Shown here: one piece after another, positions 1 through 10,964 of the stretch
Layout of the letters: every line of letters starts with the position of its first letter
Numbering within the stretch: the stretch's first letter is position 1
Virus record (IMG/VR): IMGVR_UViG_3300002461_000870
Location: 1-10,964 of that record
Origin: a virus
Length of the DNA stretch: 10,964 nucleotides
Direction: 5' to 3' (one strand)
The notes under the pieces: generated by a model
The model's database searches: none
What the model saw: the letters and a program-made list of their open reading frames with translations, nothing else
What the model was told of the DNA's origin: nothing
Program-made: the position numbers and the translations under genes

Positions 1-94
1 ATCTCAAAGACCAAGCGGTGCGCATCCAAGCCGAAACAGACCGCGCGCACGCGCGCATCGATCAATTCGTCATGAGGGAGTCGAGGCAATGAAG
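1..94. repeat. Terminal redundancy, copy 1 (identical to 10871-10964). It contains the 3' end of the 61-aa ORF (stop 90-92).
   Basis: Base-by-base comparison of 1-94 with 10871-10964 shows identity. This is typical of the end overlap of a circular contig. Confidence 0.95.
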
Positions 95-370
95 CAACAT
101 CACGCATTCACGTTTGACCGCAAGCCGGTCCCCGGGGCCGTGCCGATCATGGTGACGTCGACCTTCGAAGCGTCGGACGATGGCCAGCTGCGCCATTACA
201 CCGACGGGCGCCTTCGCGCCGAAGTGCCGCCCGAGGGCTGGGATGCCTACGCGGAGCAATGGCCCGATTCGCGCGCCATGGTGAACGAGCTCAAAGGCAA
301 GCCGGTCGTAGAGCAGACGATTTTCATCGGGGCGGACGCGCTCGCCAAGCAAGCCGAACTGGTGAAGTAA
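89..370 (+). CDS. Hypothetical soluble protein, 93 aa
   Basis: The ATG at 89 overlaps the TGA of the upstream 61-aa ORF (ATGA). GAGGGAG lies at 74-80. Third codon positions are strongly G/C. No TM segment or recognisable motif. Confidence 0.7.
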   Translation: MKQHHAFTFDRKPVPGAVPIMVTSTFEASDDGQLRHYTDGRLRAEVPPEGWDAYAEQWPDSRAMVNELKGKPVVEQTIFIGADALAKQAELVK

Positions 371-510
371 TGAGTCCGTACATCCCAAGCCTGCCGCAAG
401 TCTCTCGCGAGGTAATCGCGATACTGATCGCCACCGTTGCGGCGGCCTGGATCATCTCTCGCATCCCTGCCGTGCGCCAGCTGGTGCGCGAAAACTCCCT
501 GAACGGCTGA
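370..510 (+). CDS. Small single-pass membrane protein, 46 aa
   Basis: The ATG at 370 overlaps the upstream TAA (TAATG). The hydrophobic helix is VIAILIATVAAAWII. This is the C-terminal part of track ORF 259-510. Third positions are G/C-rich. Confidence 0.6.
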   Translation: MSPYIPSLPQVSREVIAILIATVAAAWIISRIPAVRQLVRENSLNG

Positions 511-513
511 TCC

Positions 514-687
514 ATGCTCGATCGTCTGAAAGCGCGCGCGCATGAGCCGTCGACGTGGGCGGGGCTCGCGGTGCTCGCGTCGATCCTAGGCGTGGACGGG
601 GCCGAACAATTCACGGCGCCAGACATTGCCGGGGCACTCGCGGCCGTGGCGGCCATCCTGATGAAAGAAGCAAACAATGCGCGATGA
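514..687 (+). CDS. Small membrane protein with two hydrophobic segments, 57 aa (hand-translated, below the ORF-track cutoff)
   Basis: The ATG at 514 lies 3 nt after the previous stop. Translation: MLDRLKARAHEPSTWAGLAVLASILGVDGAEQFTAPDIAGALAAVAAILMKEANNAR, with TGA at 685-687. Third positions are G/C-rich. It overlaps the next ORF by 11 nt. Confidence 0.55.
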   Translation: MLDRLKARAHEPSTWAGLAVLASILGVDGAEQFTAPDIAGALAAVAAILMKEANNAR

Positions 688-1144
688 TCTACTCGAAGAT
701 GGCGTTTCGTCGTTGTGTTTGGCGGTCGGTAGTTCGCCGGTTTTGCTGACAGGGACGCTAGTCGAGCAGGCGCTCGCTACCATTTCCGTTCCGCCGTCGG
801 CCGTTCGCCCAAATTCATTGTTTCGGATTTGGACGATGTGGTCGGTCACCAACAACGCCAACGTGAAAACCGTTCGCCTTCGTGCCAATGGTGTCGTCTG
901 GCATGTCTCCGCGCTGACCAGCGTCGCAACCGGATCGATCATGGGGCTGACTCCAATGCGAGGTCTGTCGGGTCAGGCGCACAATCCAGCGATGACTGCG
1001 CCGTTCATCACTGGCGTCGCGCCCGTCGCCTTGACGAGCGTCGATTGTTCGACCGGCTTCGAATTGACTGTGACCGCTCAGTTGACCAACATCGCCGACT
1101 CGATGACGCTAGAGGCTTACTGCGTCGAAGTGCTCGGGCGATGA
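677..1144 (+). CDS. Beta-rich soluble protein, 155 aa. Candidate minor capsid/vertex (single jelly-roll-like) protein.
   Basis: ATG at 677 with high GC3. The sequence has alternating hydrophobic and Thr/Ser/Val-rich stretches (VKTVRLRANGVVWHVSALTSV, FELTVTAQLTNIADSMTLEAYCVEVL) and no TM. The function is inference only. Confidence 0.7.
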   Translation: MRDDLLEDGVSSLCLAVGSSPVLLTGTLVEQALATISVPPSAVRPNSLFRIWTMWSVTNNANVKTVRLRANGVVWHVSALTSVATGSIMGLTPMRGLSGQAHNPAMTAPFITGVAPVALTSVDCSTGFELTVTAQLTNIADSMTLEAYCVEVLGR

Positions 1145-1236
1145 ACTCCAGCGATTGGGTGCTGCTCGGCGTGGGCCTGTGGCTGGTGTGGGAACTGCGC
1201 CGGCAGACTCAACCCGCGCGCGCCATCAGGGTATAA
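1141..1236 (+). CDS. Tiny membrane peptide, 31 aa; last gene of the late operon
   Basis: ATGA overlap with the previous stop. Translation: MNSSDWVLLGVGLWLVWELRRQTQPARAIRV, with TAA at 1234-1236. It has a Trp-flanked TM helix followed by a basic tail. Confidence 0.5.
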   Translation: MNSSDWVLLGVGLWLVWELRRQTQPARAIRV

Positions 1237-9154: not shown

Positions 9155-9939
9155 GCGAGCGATTCAGCGGGCTGTCGATGCCTTCCGACAATTTCGGCGC
9201 CGTACGCGATCGGCGCCGAACCGGCATCTTGCATTGGGATGTGGACTTGTCGACGGCGCGGTCACTCACGGCCGGTACGGCGCTCGTCATTCCGATCGCG
9301 GGCAACGTGCTCTATATCGACCAGCGAAAAAACACGGGCTATGCCACCGTGCACATCGTAGACGACACCTTCAACGCCGGGAATACGCCGGTCACGGTGT
9401 TCGCGGGGTACATCCTGAAGGCGCCATTCACGCAGCTGGTGATTCAAAACGATGCGCAACCGGGCCAATCCATCCGTATCCTGTACGGCGTGGACGTGGA
9501 CTTTCTACCGGGCATCGGCGCGGGCGTCACCGTCACGGCGCCCGTGAACGTGGTCGATCTGCTCGACCCGGCCGGTCGCGTCGATGTGGTGAACCTCCCC
9601 ACGGCCGTCGGCAATAACCAGCTCGTCACGCTACTGGCGCCGGCCGCCAACCCGCGCGGCGTGCGGCTGCGGCATGCCGTGCAAAGCTACACGCCGGGCG
9701 CAGGCGGGCAAATTGTCGGGTGGATGGTCGCGAGCATCTCGGCGCCCCCGGGGATCTCGTCCAAAGCCAATACGGCGCTGCTGATGTATGTCAGCTCCAT
9801 ATCAGCGATCAATGAGTTCGAACAAATCCCCCTGCAGAGTCGGGAGATTCCGCCCGGCTGGGGCGTCTATCACTTGTCGAACGTGGTGGTTGCGCCGGCC
9901 GTCGGCAACGTGATCCACTGGCATTACGAGGTGAAATAG
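9151..9939 (+). CDS. Beta-rich two-domain protein, 262 aa; candidate vertex penton/spike (host-recognition) protein
   Basis: The ATGA-coupled ATG at 9151 has GGAG at 9137-9140. The track start at 9085 lies inside the upstream gene. Strand-like segments include LVIPIAGNVLYIDQ, YATVHIVDD, VTVFAGYILKAPFTQLVIQND and SIRILYGVDVDF. There is no TM. The function is inferred. Confidence 0.75.
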   Translation: MSERFSGLSMPSDNFGAVRDRRRTGILHWDVDLSTARSLTAGTALVIPIAGNVLYIDQRKNTGYATVHIVDDTFNAGNTPVTVFAGYILKAPFTQLVIQNDAQPGQSIRILYGVDVDFLPGIGAGVTVTAPVNVVDLLDPAGRVDVVNLPTAVGNNQLVTLLAPAANPRGVRLRHAVQSYTPGAGGQIVGWMVASISAPPGISSKANTALLMYVSSISAINEFEQIPLQSREIPPGWGVYHLSNVVVAPAVGNVIHWHYEVK

Positions 9940-10157
9940 TGGCGGTCGATACCATCATCGTTACAGGGCTGCCCGGCGAACCGGGCGCCATTCTGAAGGG
10001 CAGCGAACTTATCGCGGCGGTGCGTATTGCTGCCGAAGCGAAAGCGGCGGGGCTCGAGGGGCGGGTGTATTTGGTCGAAGGCGGCAAGATGAAGGAATTC
10101 AACCTCGCGACCAAGGCGCGCGGCGTCGATCTTGCCAAAGCGCCATGGAGCGATTAG
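9939..10157 (+). CDS. Hypothetical protein, 72 aa
   Basis: The GTG start overlaps the upstream TAG (TAGTG). GC3 is high. It fills the gap between coupled genes. No motif recognised. Confidence 0.6.
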   Translation: MAVDTIIVTGLPGEPGAILKGSELIAAVRIAAEAKAAGLEGRVYLVEGGKMKEFNLATKARGVDLAKAPWSD

Positions 10158-10159
10158 CC

Positions 10160-10780
10160 ATGCCGATCCTGCTTGCACTGACGGCCGCAGCGATCGCGGC
10201 CTTTGTCGTTTTTCGCTCACGGGTAGGCGAGGGGCAATCGCTCGTCTTTGATACACCGAACCCAACCTACGACGATTTGATGGGTCCGCCAACCGGCTCC
10301 CCGCTCACCGTCGAACCGTTCACCGAGGTATTCGCGCGTGCGGCCCGCTCGATCGCAGGCAGTGCGCGCCGATTGTTCGCGCTCCCAGCATCGGCCGCCC
10401 CATATGCGGATGCCATTCGCGCGGCCGAACAAAAGCACGGCATCCCGCAAAGCCTGCTTGGTCGTGTGCTCTGGCAAGAGTCCCGATTCCGGCCCGACAT
10501 CATCACGGGCAAGGTGCGAAGCTCGGCCGGGGCCGTGGGCATCGCGCAATTCATGCCCGCAACGGCCAAAGATGAGGGGGTAAACCCGCTCGATCCTTTC
10601 GACAGCATCAACGGTGCCGCGCGCTACCTGCGCAAGCTATTCAACGCCACCGGCTCTTGGGAGCGGGCGCTGGCGTCGTATAACTGGGGCATCGGCAACG
10701 TTACACGGCGCGGCCTGGGCGCGGCGCCGGCCGAAACACGCGCCTATGTGTCGGAAATCCTACGCGACGTGCAGGTGTGA
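10160..10780 (+). CDS. Membrane-anchored lytic transglycosylase (SLT domain), 206 aa
   Basis: ATG at 10160 with GGAG at 10147-10150. The N-terminal hydrophobic segment is PILLALTAAAIAAFVVF. SLT family motifs are present: LWQESRF (catalytic Glu codon 10478-10480), GAVGIAQFMPATA, AARYL and ALASYNWG. Confidence 0.9.
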   Translation: MPILLALTAAAIAAFVVFRSRVGEGQSLVFDTPNPTYDDLMGPPTGSPLTVEPFTEVFARAARSIAGSARRLFALPASAAPYADAIRAAEQKHGIPQSLLGRVLWQESRFRPDIITGKVRSSAGAVGIAQFMPATAKDEGVNPLDPFDSINGAARYLRKLFNATGSWERALASYNWGIGNVTRRGLGAAPAETRAYVSEILRDVQV

Positions 10781-10962
10781 CCGTGGATGCGCTCTCGATC
10801 GCAGGCACGCTTGTGGGCCAGCTGATCGTGGCGGGTGCCATCTACGGGGGCATCCGTGCGGATCTGCGAAATCTCAAAGACCAAGCGGTGCGCATCCAAG
10901 CCGAAACAGACCGCGCGCACGCGCGCATCGATCAATTCGTCATGAGGGAGTCGAGGCAATGA
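10777..10962 (+). CDS. Small N-terminally anchored coiled-coil membrane protein, 61 aa (holin/spanin-like candidate)
   Basis: GTGA overlap with the SLT stop. The TM is LSIAGTLVGQLIVAGAIYGGI, followed by a charged helix RADLRNLKDQAVRIQAETDRAHARIDQF. Its 3' end lies in the terminal repeat. Confidence 0.7.
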   Translation: MTVDALSIAGTLVGQLIVAGAIYGGIRADLRNLKDQAVRIQAETDRAHARIDQFVMRESRQ

Positions 10963-10964
10963 AG
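10871..10964. repeat. Terminal redundancy, copy 2 (identical to 1-94)
   Basis: Same comparison as copy 1. The window ends at the ATG/AAG of the next gene, exactly as at 89-94. Confidence 0.95.

Follow-up and report, generated by a model that had tools for sequence, protein, structure and literature searches.

What kind of virus is assembled in the 10,964-nt stretch spanning positions 1 to 10,964 of the IMG/VR record IMGVR_UViG_3300002461_000870 (hereafter the window), and how could it persist in a host when no integrase is detected among its proteins? An earlier note on this DNA had described a PM2/corticovirus-like virus with a rolling-circle replication protein, and we followed up its claims computationally. 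With good though not full confidence, we read the window as the complete, circular 10,870-bp genome of an uncultivated, tail-less phage with an icosahedral capsid, a putative internal membrane and a double jelly-roll (DJR) capsid protein, which belongs to the class Tectiliviricetes and to the bacterial STIV group and is probably temperate through the host recombinases XerC and XerD (XerCD). It is a known kind of virus, not a new one, and a member of the bacterial STIV group, not a corticovirus proper. This reading is built mainly on the following features:

6151..7134, plus strand: predicted major capsid protein (MCP), 327 aa, starting 205 nt after the ATPase stop (AlphaFold2 model, Foldseek, family profile)
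5322..5945, plus strand: predicted packaging ATPase, 207 aa, with Walker A GGTGTGKT and Walker B VLVDE (PM2 P9 match; PHROG 2666)
1612..1639, plus strand: dif-like site ATTGCGCATAA-TGTGTA-GCCTGTAGGTC, proposed attachment site (attP) for host XerCD, just downstream of the conserved region of the repressor
3100..4410, plus strand: predicted rolling-circle initiator (Rep), 436 aa, an HUH endonuclease of the Rep_1 type (PHROG 11698; Pfam Rep_1; invariant motifs)
1..94, no strand: assembly overlap, identical to 10871-10964, which marks the closure of the 10,870-bp circle and not a physical terminal repeat

The AlphaFold2 model of the 327-aa protein, built on 38 relatives, reached a pLDDT of 86.6 and a pTM of 0.86. 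Foldseek matched it to PRD1 P3 (E 7.6e-19, TM-score 0.75-0.78), to the STIV MCP (TM-score 0.70) and to PM2 P2 (E 4.8e-14, target TM-score 0.73) and, among predicted viral structures, to the MCP of Bacillus phage Wip1 (E 1.3e-21, TM-score 0.80); no FLiP-type protein was found among the top matches listed for this model. As judged from its modelled structure, the protein is a DJR MCP with the vertical DJR fold. The DJR capsid that the earlier note had proposed is thereby borne out, and the outcome that the note had named as refuting its reading, namely that no open reading frame (ORF) would model as a jelly-roll capsid protein, did not arise when this check was run.

At the sequence level, a 60-member family profile (A3) matched the STIV coat protein in the PDB (3j31_A and 2bbd_A, E 3.5e-16, residues 11-311), which the narrower 38-member profile (A1), with no match to PDB sequences, did not reach, and hhalign aligned the capsid family profile with the MCP of Thermus phage phiKo at 95% probability. 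The alignments with PM2 P2 were not significant (3% probability for A1, 10% for A3), nor was the partial one between A3 and the capsid protein of a Vinavirales clade D prophage (38% probability), and Pfam P2_N gave no match in the window protein even at E 10, with two relatives being borderline. By sequence, the capsid protein is therefore not of the PM2 P2 type, and STIV and phiKo are its nearest relatives by profile. Its wider family is large: relatives fall into at least 478 clusters at 90% identity, most of them 60-80% identical and located on contigs of 9-11 kb, and a HMMER scan of 1.84 billion representatives yielded 390 capsid-family clusters at 50% identity, 69 of which were found at E <= 1e-30. 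The view that this group is poorly sampled does not hold for metagenomes. A pattern scan of IMG/VR found one relative only and was of no use for family statistics.

A low-GC (45-53%) branch of the capsid family, represented by the related contigs L005, L006, L010 and L011 (our handles for relatives have this form throughout), carries a shorter (176-184 aa) and very divergent ATPase just upstream of the capsid gene, and no homologue of the window Rep was detectable in these four contigs. These differences indicate that replication and packaging genes vary within one capsid family.

The 207-aa protein encoded near the capsid gene is, by its motifs and sequence matches, a packaging ATPase that falls within the FtsK/HerA superfamily, in line with the FtsK-like ATPase of the earlier note. 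Of the isolated phages, PM2 provides the best match with its P9 (E 5e-18; 31.6% identity across 94% of the protein), and matches to NO16-like vibriophages, Cr39582, phiG2 and phiKo were found as well. It also belongs to PHROG 2666 (E 5.9e-28), and its family profile matched HerA helicases (E 1.5e-22) and, over the full length, STIV B204 (E 1e-7), the B204 packaging NTPases of STIV and STIV2 being the sole full-length matches in the PDB. In the mechanism that we propose, this ATPase would pump the genome into a membrane-lined procapsid built of trimers of the DJR protein. The packaging ATPase, together with the precedent of PM2, leads us to infer double-stranded virion DNA, and an internal membrane is proposed as well; many small proteins with transmembrane (TM) segments, as judged by hydropathy, are encoded in the late block.

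The link of the capsid protein to STIV by profile agrees independently with an earlier listing. Yutin et al. 2018 (PMC5894146) list LNFM01012713_10964, with the gene labels HTH, REP, ATP, MCP and lys, in a bacterial "STIV group" that also contains CXWL01002797, and their supplements label the LNFM01 contigs as activated carbon metagenome. Judging from the same length, source and gene labels, the window is almost certainly the published contig LNFM01012713 (10,964 nt). What was published is a supplementary gene map, which is without the dif-like site, the genes shared with clade D and the closeness of the ATPase to PM2 (PMC5894146), and no further paper citing LNFM01012713 was found in our literature search. 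The PRD1 group of the same study, which also has contigs of this metagenome, was ruled out, its polymerase and DNA-delivery genes being absent here. In the trees of Woo et al. 2021 (PMC8328091), for the capsid protein and the ATPase alike, the bacterial STIV group is next to the PM2 group; the order to which it belongs was left open there, with Vinavirales, Belfryvirales or a new order as candidates. Our results are consistent with this picture and add gene-content evidence for an affinity to Vinavirales.

This evidence comes from comparison with Vinavirales clade D, a clade of betaproteobacterial prophages, almost none of them with an integrase, for which the name 'Neaeraviridae' has been proposed (Yutin et al. 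2022, PMC9502842). Like the window, these prophages are mostly integrase-free, and their gene order is the same. The proteins of one such prophage, WIXJ01000002, were taken from Supplementary File S5 of PMC9502842, and eight window proteins turned out to be homologous to them, namely Rep (39% identity to rep_d, E 4e-92), the ATPase (38% identity, E 2e-39) and the products of these genes:

4846..5325, plus strand: ORF_h-type putative assembly factor, 159 aa, one TM segment, in the slot of PM2 ORF h (33% identity, E 7e-14, to the clade D ORF_h)
1209..1613, minus strand: P15-type regulator of 111-134 aa, according to which start codon is taken, a leftward gene beside the proposed attachment site (33% identity, E 2e-10, to P15_TR)
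10777..10962, plus strand: P17-type lysis factor, 61 aa, spanning the assembly junction (48% identity, E 3e-11, to the clade D P17, with the common motif GAIYGGIRADLR)
514..687, plus strand: holin-like protein, 57 aa (41% identity, E 2e-9, to the 'holin' of WIXJ01000002)
367..510, plus strand: single-TM protein, 47 aa (TM 12-30), ATGA-coupled to the 89-370 ORF (33% identity, E 8e-6, to the 48-aa WIXJ01000002_10)
6021..6107, plus strand: single-TM protein, 28 aa, in the slot of PM2 P7 between the ATPase and capsid genes, conserved in L001, L002 and L003 (43% identity, E 5e-5, to a 39-aa protein that the prophage encodes between its ATPase and MCP genes)

These matches in replication, regulation, packaging and lysis genes tie the window to Vinavirales. 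In contrast, the P2-type capsid protein, P3, P8, GNAT, P10 and the P1 spike of WIXJ01000002 had no match in the window, and the capsid proteins themselves differ, that of the clade D prophage being a 269-aa, P2-type protein with Pfam P2_N and that of the window a 327-aa protein without it. Compared with clade D, the capsid gene and those that follow it would thus have been either replaced or diverged beyond recognition. One account of this, which is conceivable although we think it rather unlikely, is that the lineage is a chimera, in which a Vinavirales clade D-like backbone (Rep_d, P14, ORF_h, P9-type ATPase, P7, P15/P16, P17 and holin) was joined to a capsid gene and downstream membrane and vertex genes from a STIV/Bam35-like lineage. 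If this were true, separate histories would have to be assumed here for two proteins that are usually deemed the co-inherited viral 'self', namely the capsid protein and the packaging ATPase. STIV and the phiKo/Bam35-Wip1-type tectiviruses have the nearest capsid proteins by profile (STIV, phiKo) and by fold (Wip1), and no genes common to them and the window were found beyond the capsid protein and the ATPase. STIV differs in its archaeal host, its 18-kb genome, its own integrase and its turret proteins, and tectiviruses differ in their linear genomes with inverted terminal repeats and in their protein-primed PolB, whereas the window is a circular assembly with no polymerase match in Pfam or PHROGs.

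The gene order of the window is also collinear with that of PM2: two leftward regulators are found alongside small rightward ORFs, Rep, the P14 slot, the ORF_h slot and the ATPase, and, behind a terminator-like hairpin, the late genes start with the peptide in the P7 slot and continue with the capsid gene, the genes of membrane proteins, that of the two-domain beta protein, the lysin gene and the genes of small lysis proteins. By sequence, the layout is in three blocks as in PM2 (leftward regulators, rightward early genes and late genes), as the three-operon comparison of the earlier note implied. The likeness to PM2 extends to the circular genome of about 10 kb, the P9-type ATPase, the rolling circle and the order of ATPase, small TM peptide and capsid gene. 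PM2 differs in the sequence families of its capsid protein and Rep and in its GC content of 42%, and it is strictly lytic (PMC1950889), unlike the virus proposed here, which would be temperate. The label 'PM2/corticovirus-like' therefore fits the ATPase, the gene order and the three-block layout, but neither the capsid protein, which is linked to STIV by profile, nor the inovirus-type Rep.

That the window represents a true corticovirus, i.e., that it belongs to the PM2 family as a divergent, GC-rich form whose capsid protein is of the P2 type and whose replication is of the P12 type, is improbable. The capsid profile finds STIV (E 3.5e-16) and phiKo instead of PM2 P2 (hhalign 3-10%), the window capsid protein is without a P2_N match, Rep is unrelated to P12 in sequence, P1, P3, P8, P10 and GNAT of PM2-type prophages are undetectable, and what is almost certainly the same contig was published in the STIV group and not in the PM2 group. 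A corticovirus would nevertheless account for the PM2 P9-like ATPase being the best match among isolated phages, for the borderline P2_N score in two capsid relatives and for the collinear gene order with weak matches in matching slots to ORF c, ORF a, P14 and P7. Among all PM2 proteins, matches were strong for the ATPase and the helix-turn-helix (HTH) repressor only, and weak but positionally right for P14, ORF a, P2 and P7.

Without a recombinase of its own (none was found in Pfam scans of the window), the virus could use its dif-like site for lysogeny. In this site, the XerC arm and the central region are intact and the XerD arm is degenerate; the 17 nt of XerC arm plus central region have one mismatch to the proteobacterial consensus RNTKCGCATAATGTATA, with 0.01 matches expected by chance. 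In the close relatives L018 and L019, the identical 17-mer recurs at this point of the gene order with other bases next to it, and in L020 the place is taken by a complete dif with both arms. Furthermore, relatives were found inside bacterial chromosomes, namely L001 (435-kb JGI contig), L008 (264-kb contig of a Dechloromonas metagenome-assembled genome (MAG)), L009 (Azonexus contig) and L002. The right edge of the L001 prophage, in which no recombinase was found, is a textbook dif, GGTGCGCATAATTTGTATTATGTAAAGT, and its left edge a degenerate copy, AACTCGCATAATTTGTACTATTGAATCA, just downstream of an HTH repressor gene. L009 is flanked, at the corresponding gene-order position, by two dif-like sites with the common central TTTGTA. 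L008, on the other hand, encodes a tyrosine integrase (14623-15507, minus strand; Pfam E 2.9e-36) in the slot of the P15-like gene of the window and is bounded by 23-bp direct repeats, AGCGCGTCGGCCCNGCAGTTGGG, at 5787-5809 and 15659-15681, which are not dif-like; compared with the dif flanks of L001 and L009, this indicates that integration modules have been swapped within the capsid family. Integration linked to a tRNA was considered and rejected, as the tRNA-Ser near L008 is split from the prophage by a patatin gene and is not the prophage end.

The window thus has the features of a Xer-exploiting element (IMEX), combining a dif-like attP, the lack of a recombinase of its own and dif-flanked integrated relatives. 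Together, the conserved dif-like site and the dif-flanked relatives would explain the missing integrase by XerCD-dependent lysogeny, and they suggest that action of host XerC and XerD on the site at 1612-1639 is the most likely lysogeny mechanism. The earlier note was right that no integrase is encoded as far as Pfam and PHROGs can tell, but in view of the conserved site and the relatives at dif, this absence does not imply a lack of lysogeny. Integration of the Vibrio phage NO16 by XerCD at dif has reportedly been proposed in an earlier study. The same has been proposed for the Rhodobacter phage Jorvik (PMC10589892), and both NO16 (Asemoviridae) and Jorvik are temperate and resemble the window in being tail-less, circular, about 10 kb in size and integrase-free; the NO16 ATPase is 32% identical, whereas Jorvik has another replication protein of 212 aa (PMC10589892).

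Two further features adjoin the site:

1553..2026, minus strand: HTH repressor of the CI/P16 type, 144-157 aa (PHROG 638; Pfam; PM2 ORF c)
1647..1660, minus strand: terminator-like hairpin followed by a T-run (consensus scan, a pattern match only), predicted to end the leftward repressor transcript before the dif-like site

The repressor matches the transcriptional regulators of PHROG 638 (E 8.9e-26), Pfam HTH_3, DUF3693 and Phage_CI_repr, as well as PM2 ORF c (E 4.7e-9). Its ORF runs about 30 codons beyond the conserved region, and this tail covers the hairpin (1660-1647) and the dif-like site (1612-1639). Because of this arrangement, Xer recombination at the site would replace the C-terminal tail of the repressor, and termination at the hairpin would yield a message without a stop codon. 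The same arrangement is seen in L018 and L019.

The window could also be a non-autonomous element with capsid-like genes, such as a rolling-circle plasmid, an integrative element that needs XerCD, a satellite or a defective element. In favour of this, its Rep_1 nuclease is of the plasmid type, its dif-like site is of the kind seen in Xer-exploiting elements, and the group has no isolate. This is quite improbable, since the genes for morphogenesis and lysis are present as a full set (capsid protein, ATPase, ORF_h, P7-like peptide, membrane proteins, lysin, holin and P17) and in conserved order across hundreds of contigs of about 10 kb, and since many relatives retain 60-80% identity in the capsid protein, a strong conservation that is expected of a working capsid.

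By sequence, Rep is an HUH nuclease of the Rep_1 type that is nearest to inovirus Reps and not P12-like. It matched PHROG 11698 (E 1e-59), and Pfam Rep_1 was found in the window protein at E 8e-6 with a score of 25.9, below the curated cut-off of 33.2, while the Reps of L001 and L020 were recorded as Rep_1 without a mark for a weak or faint match; nothing meaningful was found among PDB sequences. In isolated phages, the closest Reps are those of inovirus PMBT54 (31% identity) and phage B5 (27%). Invariant in five aligned Reps, including the inovirus Rep, are LTLT..H145, NGWHPHxH (H197-P-H199-x-H201) and Y262..K265, as well as a zinc-binding CG..W.CPVC motif. No similarity to PM2 P12 was detected (phmmer E 2.1). 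Thus, the HUH rolling-circle Rep of the earlier note stands, as shown by the invariant motifs and the PHROG match, but its likeness to P12 does not. Since replication genes are often swapped within Vinavirales (PMC9502842), the P12 type is a weak criterion of membership. In the proposed mechanism, the nuclease, with Tyr262 as its catalytic residue, would nick the double-stranded circle and thereby start rolling-circle replication.

Pseudomonas phage PMBT54 and Propionibacterium phage B5, whose Reps have the same CPVC, HUH and Y..K motifs at 27-31% identity, are otherwise unlike the window, being filamentous phages of 6-7 kb with single-stranded DNA (ssDNA). As the closest Reps among isolated phages come from them and ssDNA phages with DJR capsids are known (PMC5894146), the window might belong to a virus of the FLiP/PhiCjT23 kind, in which a DJR capsid and a membrane enclose circular ssDNA made by an inovirus-type Rep. 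We consider this very improbable: the window encodes an ATPase of the PM2 P9/STIV B204 type, whereas the FLiP group (Finnlakeviridae) lacks such a packaging ATPase (PMC5894146), PM2 packages double-stranded DNA although it replicates by rolling circle (PMC1950889), the same Rep type occurs in Vinavirales prophages with double-stranded DNA, and two window genes lie on the opposite strand.

In the search for an origin, no CTTGATA nick motif was found, and the spacer between Rep and the next gene folds no better than shuffled sequences (z = 0.81). Its conservation with L004 looks like that of a small coding ORF, and the spacer was rejected as an origin. A possible 62-aa ORF at 4407-4595 (plus strand), uncalled in the ENA record, has a GTG start that overlaps the Rep stop (GTGA); its stretch LADLDQRITQLER is kept at the protein level in L004, and its slot holds small ORFs in L001, L019, L020 and the clade D prophage. 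A 19-bp direct repeat without mismatches, GGCCAAGGCGGCCGGCTCA, at 2514-2532 and 2598-2616, 84 bp apart within a 67-aa early ORF, was rejected as an iteron, because it encodes the repeated AKAAGS and no similar repeats were found in relatives.

With regard to completeness, bases 1-94 match bases 10871-10964 exactly, which leaves a unit of 10,870 bp with 63.9% GC. The TGA (10960-10962) of the 61-aa ORF 10777-10962 overlaps the ATG at 10959-10961, which equals 89-91 of the unit, in an ATGA coupling to the ORF 89-370, so that the late genes continue across the junction. Both the overlap and the coupling had been reported in the earlier note and were confirmed in the letters. An ENA assembly of run SRR2905843, "activated carbon metagenome" (L013), is 10,997 bp long with an end overlap of 127 bp, in agreement with 'k127' in its record name, and is identical to the 10,870-bp unit after trimming except for 1 mismatch. 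It begins at window position 7073, which places the window junction inside this contig. Since the two assemblies have different breaks and overlap lengths (94 vs 127), they point to a cycle in the assembly graph and not to a physical terminal repeat. L013 is a re-assembly of the window's own reads, i.e., it confirms the circular assembly but is not an independent sample. Relatives have terminal overlaps as well, located elsewhere in the genome (in L004, 55 bp within Rep; in L017, 127 bp; in L018 and L019, 30 bp). As the earlier note had it, the assembly is that of a complete and circular genome, 10,870 bp in length. A linear genome in which the 94-bp overlap is a short direct terminal repeat would give the same end-overlap signature in assemblies, but is extremely improbable, given that the two assemblies break apart from each other (position 1 vs 7073) with overlaps of 94 and 127 bp, that a coupled ORF pair crosses the junction and that, in integrated relatives, the border with the chromosome is at the dif-like site and not at the window junction.

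The content of this circle agrees closely with what had been noted before: the HUH Rep, the 207-aa ATPase, the 28-aa ORF, the 327-aa protein 205 nt after the ATPase stop and the SLT protein are all present, and a crude hydropathy scan found TM segments in 9 of the 20 called proteins, with the 28-aa ORF also being hydrophobic as judged by eye, compared with 11 of 24 proteins in the earlier count. Likewise, no real match to a tail, portal, terminase, polymerase or integrase protein was found among the window proteins with Pfam and PHROGs, as had been claimed; apart from one weak match (E 0.007), those that carry such labels belong to the lysin domain or to the ATPase of the PM2 P9 type, which PHROGs label 'terminase'. 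The window has no tRNA, and megablast of the whole unit against phage and plasmid collections gave no match.

The host is probably a member of the Betaproteobacteria, with the integrated copies in Dechloromonas and Azonexus MAGs providing the clue from sequence context. The free 9-10 kb contigs L004-L007 are binned to MAGs of unrelated phyla (Opitutaceae, Rhodoferax, Chitinophagaceae and Rhizobiaceae). These MAG labels look like binning artefacts, and the integrated copies are all found in Betaproteobacteria-like contexts.

Several points weigh against our overall interpretation. Because the repressor ORF covers the dif-like site, coding could account for part of the conservation of this site, and the XerD arm is degenerate. 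Those relatives that are closest to the window are without exception free contigs and not prophages, the MAG labels of the free contigs are inconsistent, and the suggested host comes from the more distant integrated copies. Neither a replication origin nor a nick site was found in searches of the window. A tblastn search of the GenBank phage collection gave no significant match of the capsid protein to isolated phages, and a distant member of the capsid family had no match to phages by tblastn either. Circularity was derived from assemblies of one read set, and the virus is known here from its sequence alone. Finally, the vertex assignment of a 262-aa late protein (see below) is a weak argument from position and conservation.

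Phages that have a membrane but no tail are under-sampled in culture, and no isolate exists for the bacterial STIV group. For this group, the window adds a complete reference with a gene map that links it gene by gene to betaproteobacterial Vinavirales prophages, as well as a concrete candidate mechanism of lysogeny (dif-like attP and host XerCD) and, with the lysogens of Dechloromonas and Azonexus, candidate hosts that might yield a first isolate.

The remaining late genes, including the vertex candidate, are as follows:

7201..8202, plus strand: 333-aa protein with a C-terminal TM segment (residues 304-322), directly after the capsid gene, hypervariable among relatives
8202..9154, plus strand: two membrane proteins of 157 aa (C-terminal TM) and 160 aa (N-terminal TM) (hydropathy; position)
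9151..9939, plus strand: candidate vertex protein (penton plus spike), 262 aa, two predicted beta-sandwich domains
9939..10157, plus strand: unassigned 72-aa protein, 64% identical in L004, no family match
10145..10780, plus strand: lytic transglycosylase with an N-terminal TM segment or signal anchor (residues 2-20) (Pfam SLT E 1.4e-21; PHROG 2013 E 1e-33)
89..370, plus strand: conserved 93-aa protein of the lysis/late block (tblastn; no Pfam or PHROGs family)
677..1144, plus strand: variable beta-rich protein, 155 aa from the first ATG and 102 aa in the ENA gene call of L013

For the 333-aa protein, no family match was found and no tblastn match even in L004, the MCP of which is 77% identical and which has a gene of similar size in this slot; it is a candidate membrane-anchored or host-recognition protein and may be a determinant of host range. 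The 157-aa and 160-aa proteins, which are 52-53% identical in L004 and have no significant family match, are probably virion proteins of the internal membrane. The AlphaFold2 model of the 262-aa protein (pLDDT 77, pTM 0.48) has domains at residues 27-113 and 143-261, for which Foldseek returned weak matches to tandem CBM22 and to generic beta-sandwich or jelly-roll capsid proteins with TM-scores below 0.35; according to tblastn, its N-terminal half is kept in nearly all relatives and its C-terminal half is variable. The lytic transglycosylase could serve as the lysin or as a virion-associated muralytic enzyme. The 93-aa protein had tblastn matches in 8 of 11 related loci at 44-58% identity. 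Only the first 30 residues of the beta-rich protein match in L004, the closest genome relative, and this protein has no family match.

In the early regions, the following features remain:

2027..2409, no strand: divergent regulatory region that separates leftward from rightward early genes, positioned like the early promoter region of PM2
2410..3103, plus strand: three to four small early ORFs, unassigned (2410/2446-2649, 2646-2903 and 2900-3103; ORF calls)
4565..4849, plus strand: zinc-ribbon protein, 94 aa, candidate P14-like late transcription factor (CPCC...CPNG motif; position)
5971..5995, plus strand: terminator-like hairpin and T-run behind the ATPase gene, where the early-right unit likely ends (consensus scan)

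The best PM2 match of the zinc-ribbon protein is P14 (E 5.4e-4 in a database of 21 proteins), and its slot is that of P14_TF in PM2 and clade D. In the same 21-protein database, the P15-type regulator weakly matched PM2 ORF a (E 0.0035), and a weak HTH_17 match was found as well. The small early ORFs had no family match in Pfam or PHROGs, and one of them, of 85 aa, is 71% identical in L004. The PM2 late promoter sits at the position that corresponds to the hairpin at 5971-5995 (PMC1950889). A consensus scan of the divergent region placed a sigma-70-like site at 2056-2084 (plus strand), which is not above the expectation from shuffled sequence. The corresponding region of L001 contains an exact 14-bp near-palindrome, TCATTCCCCAATGA, at 6006-6019 and 6139-6152, and these two copies are likely repressor operators; a looser 22-bp pair is found in the window at 1987-2008 and 2102-2123.

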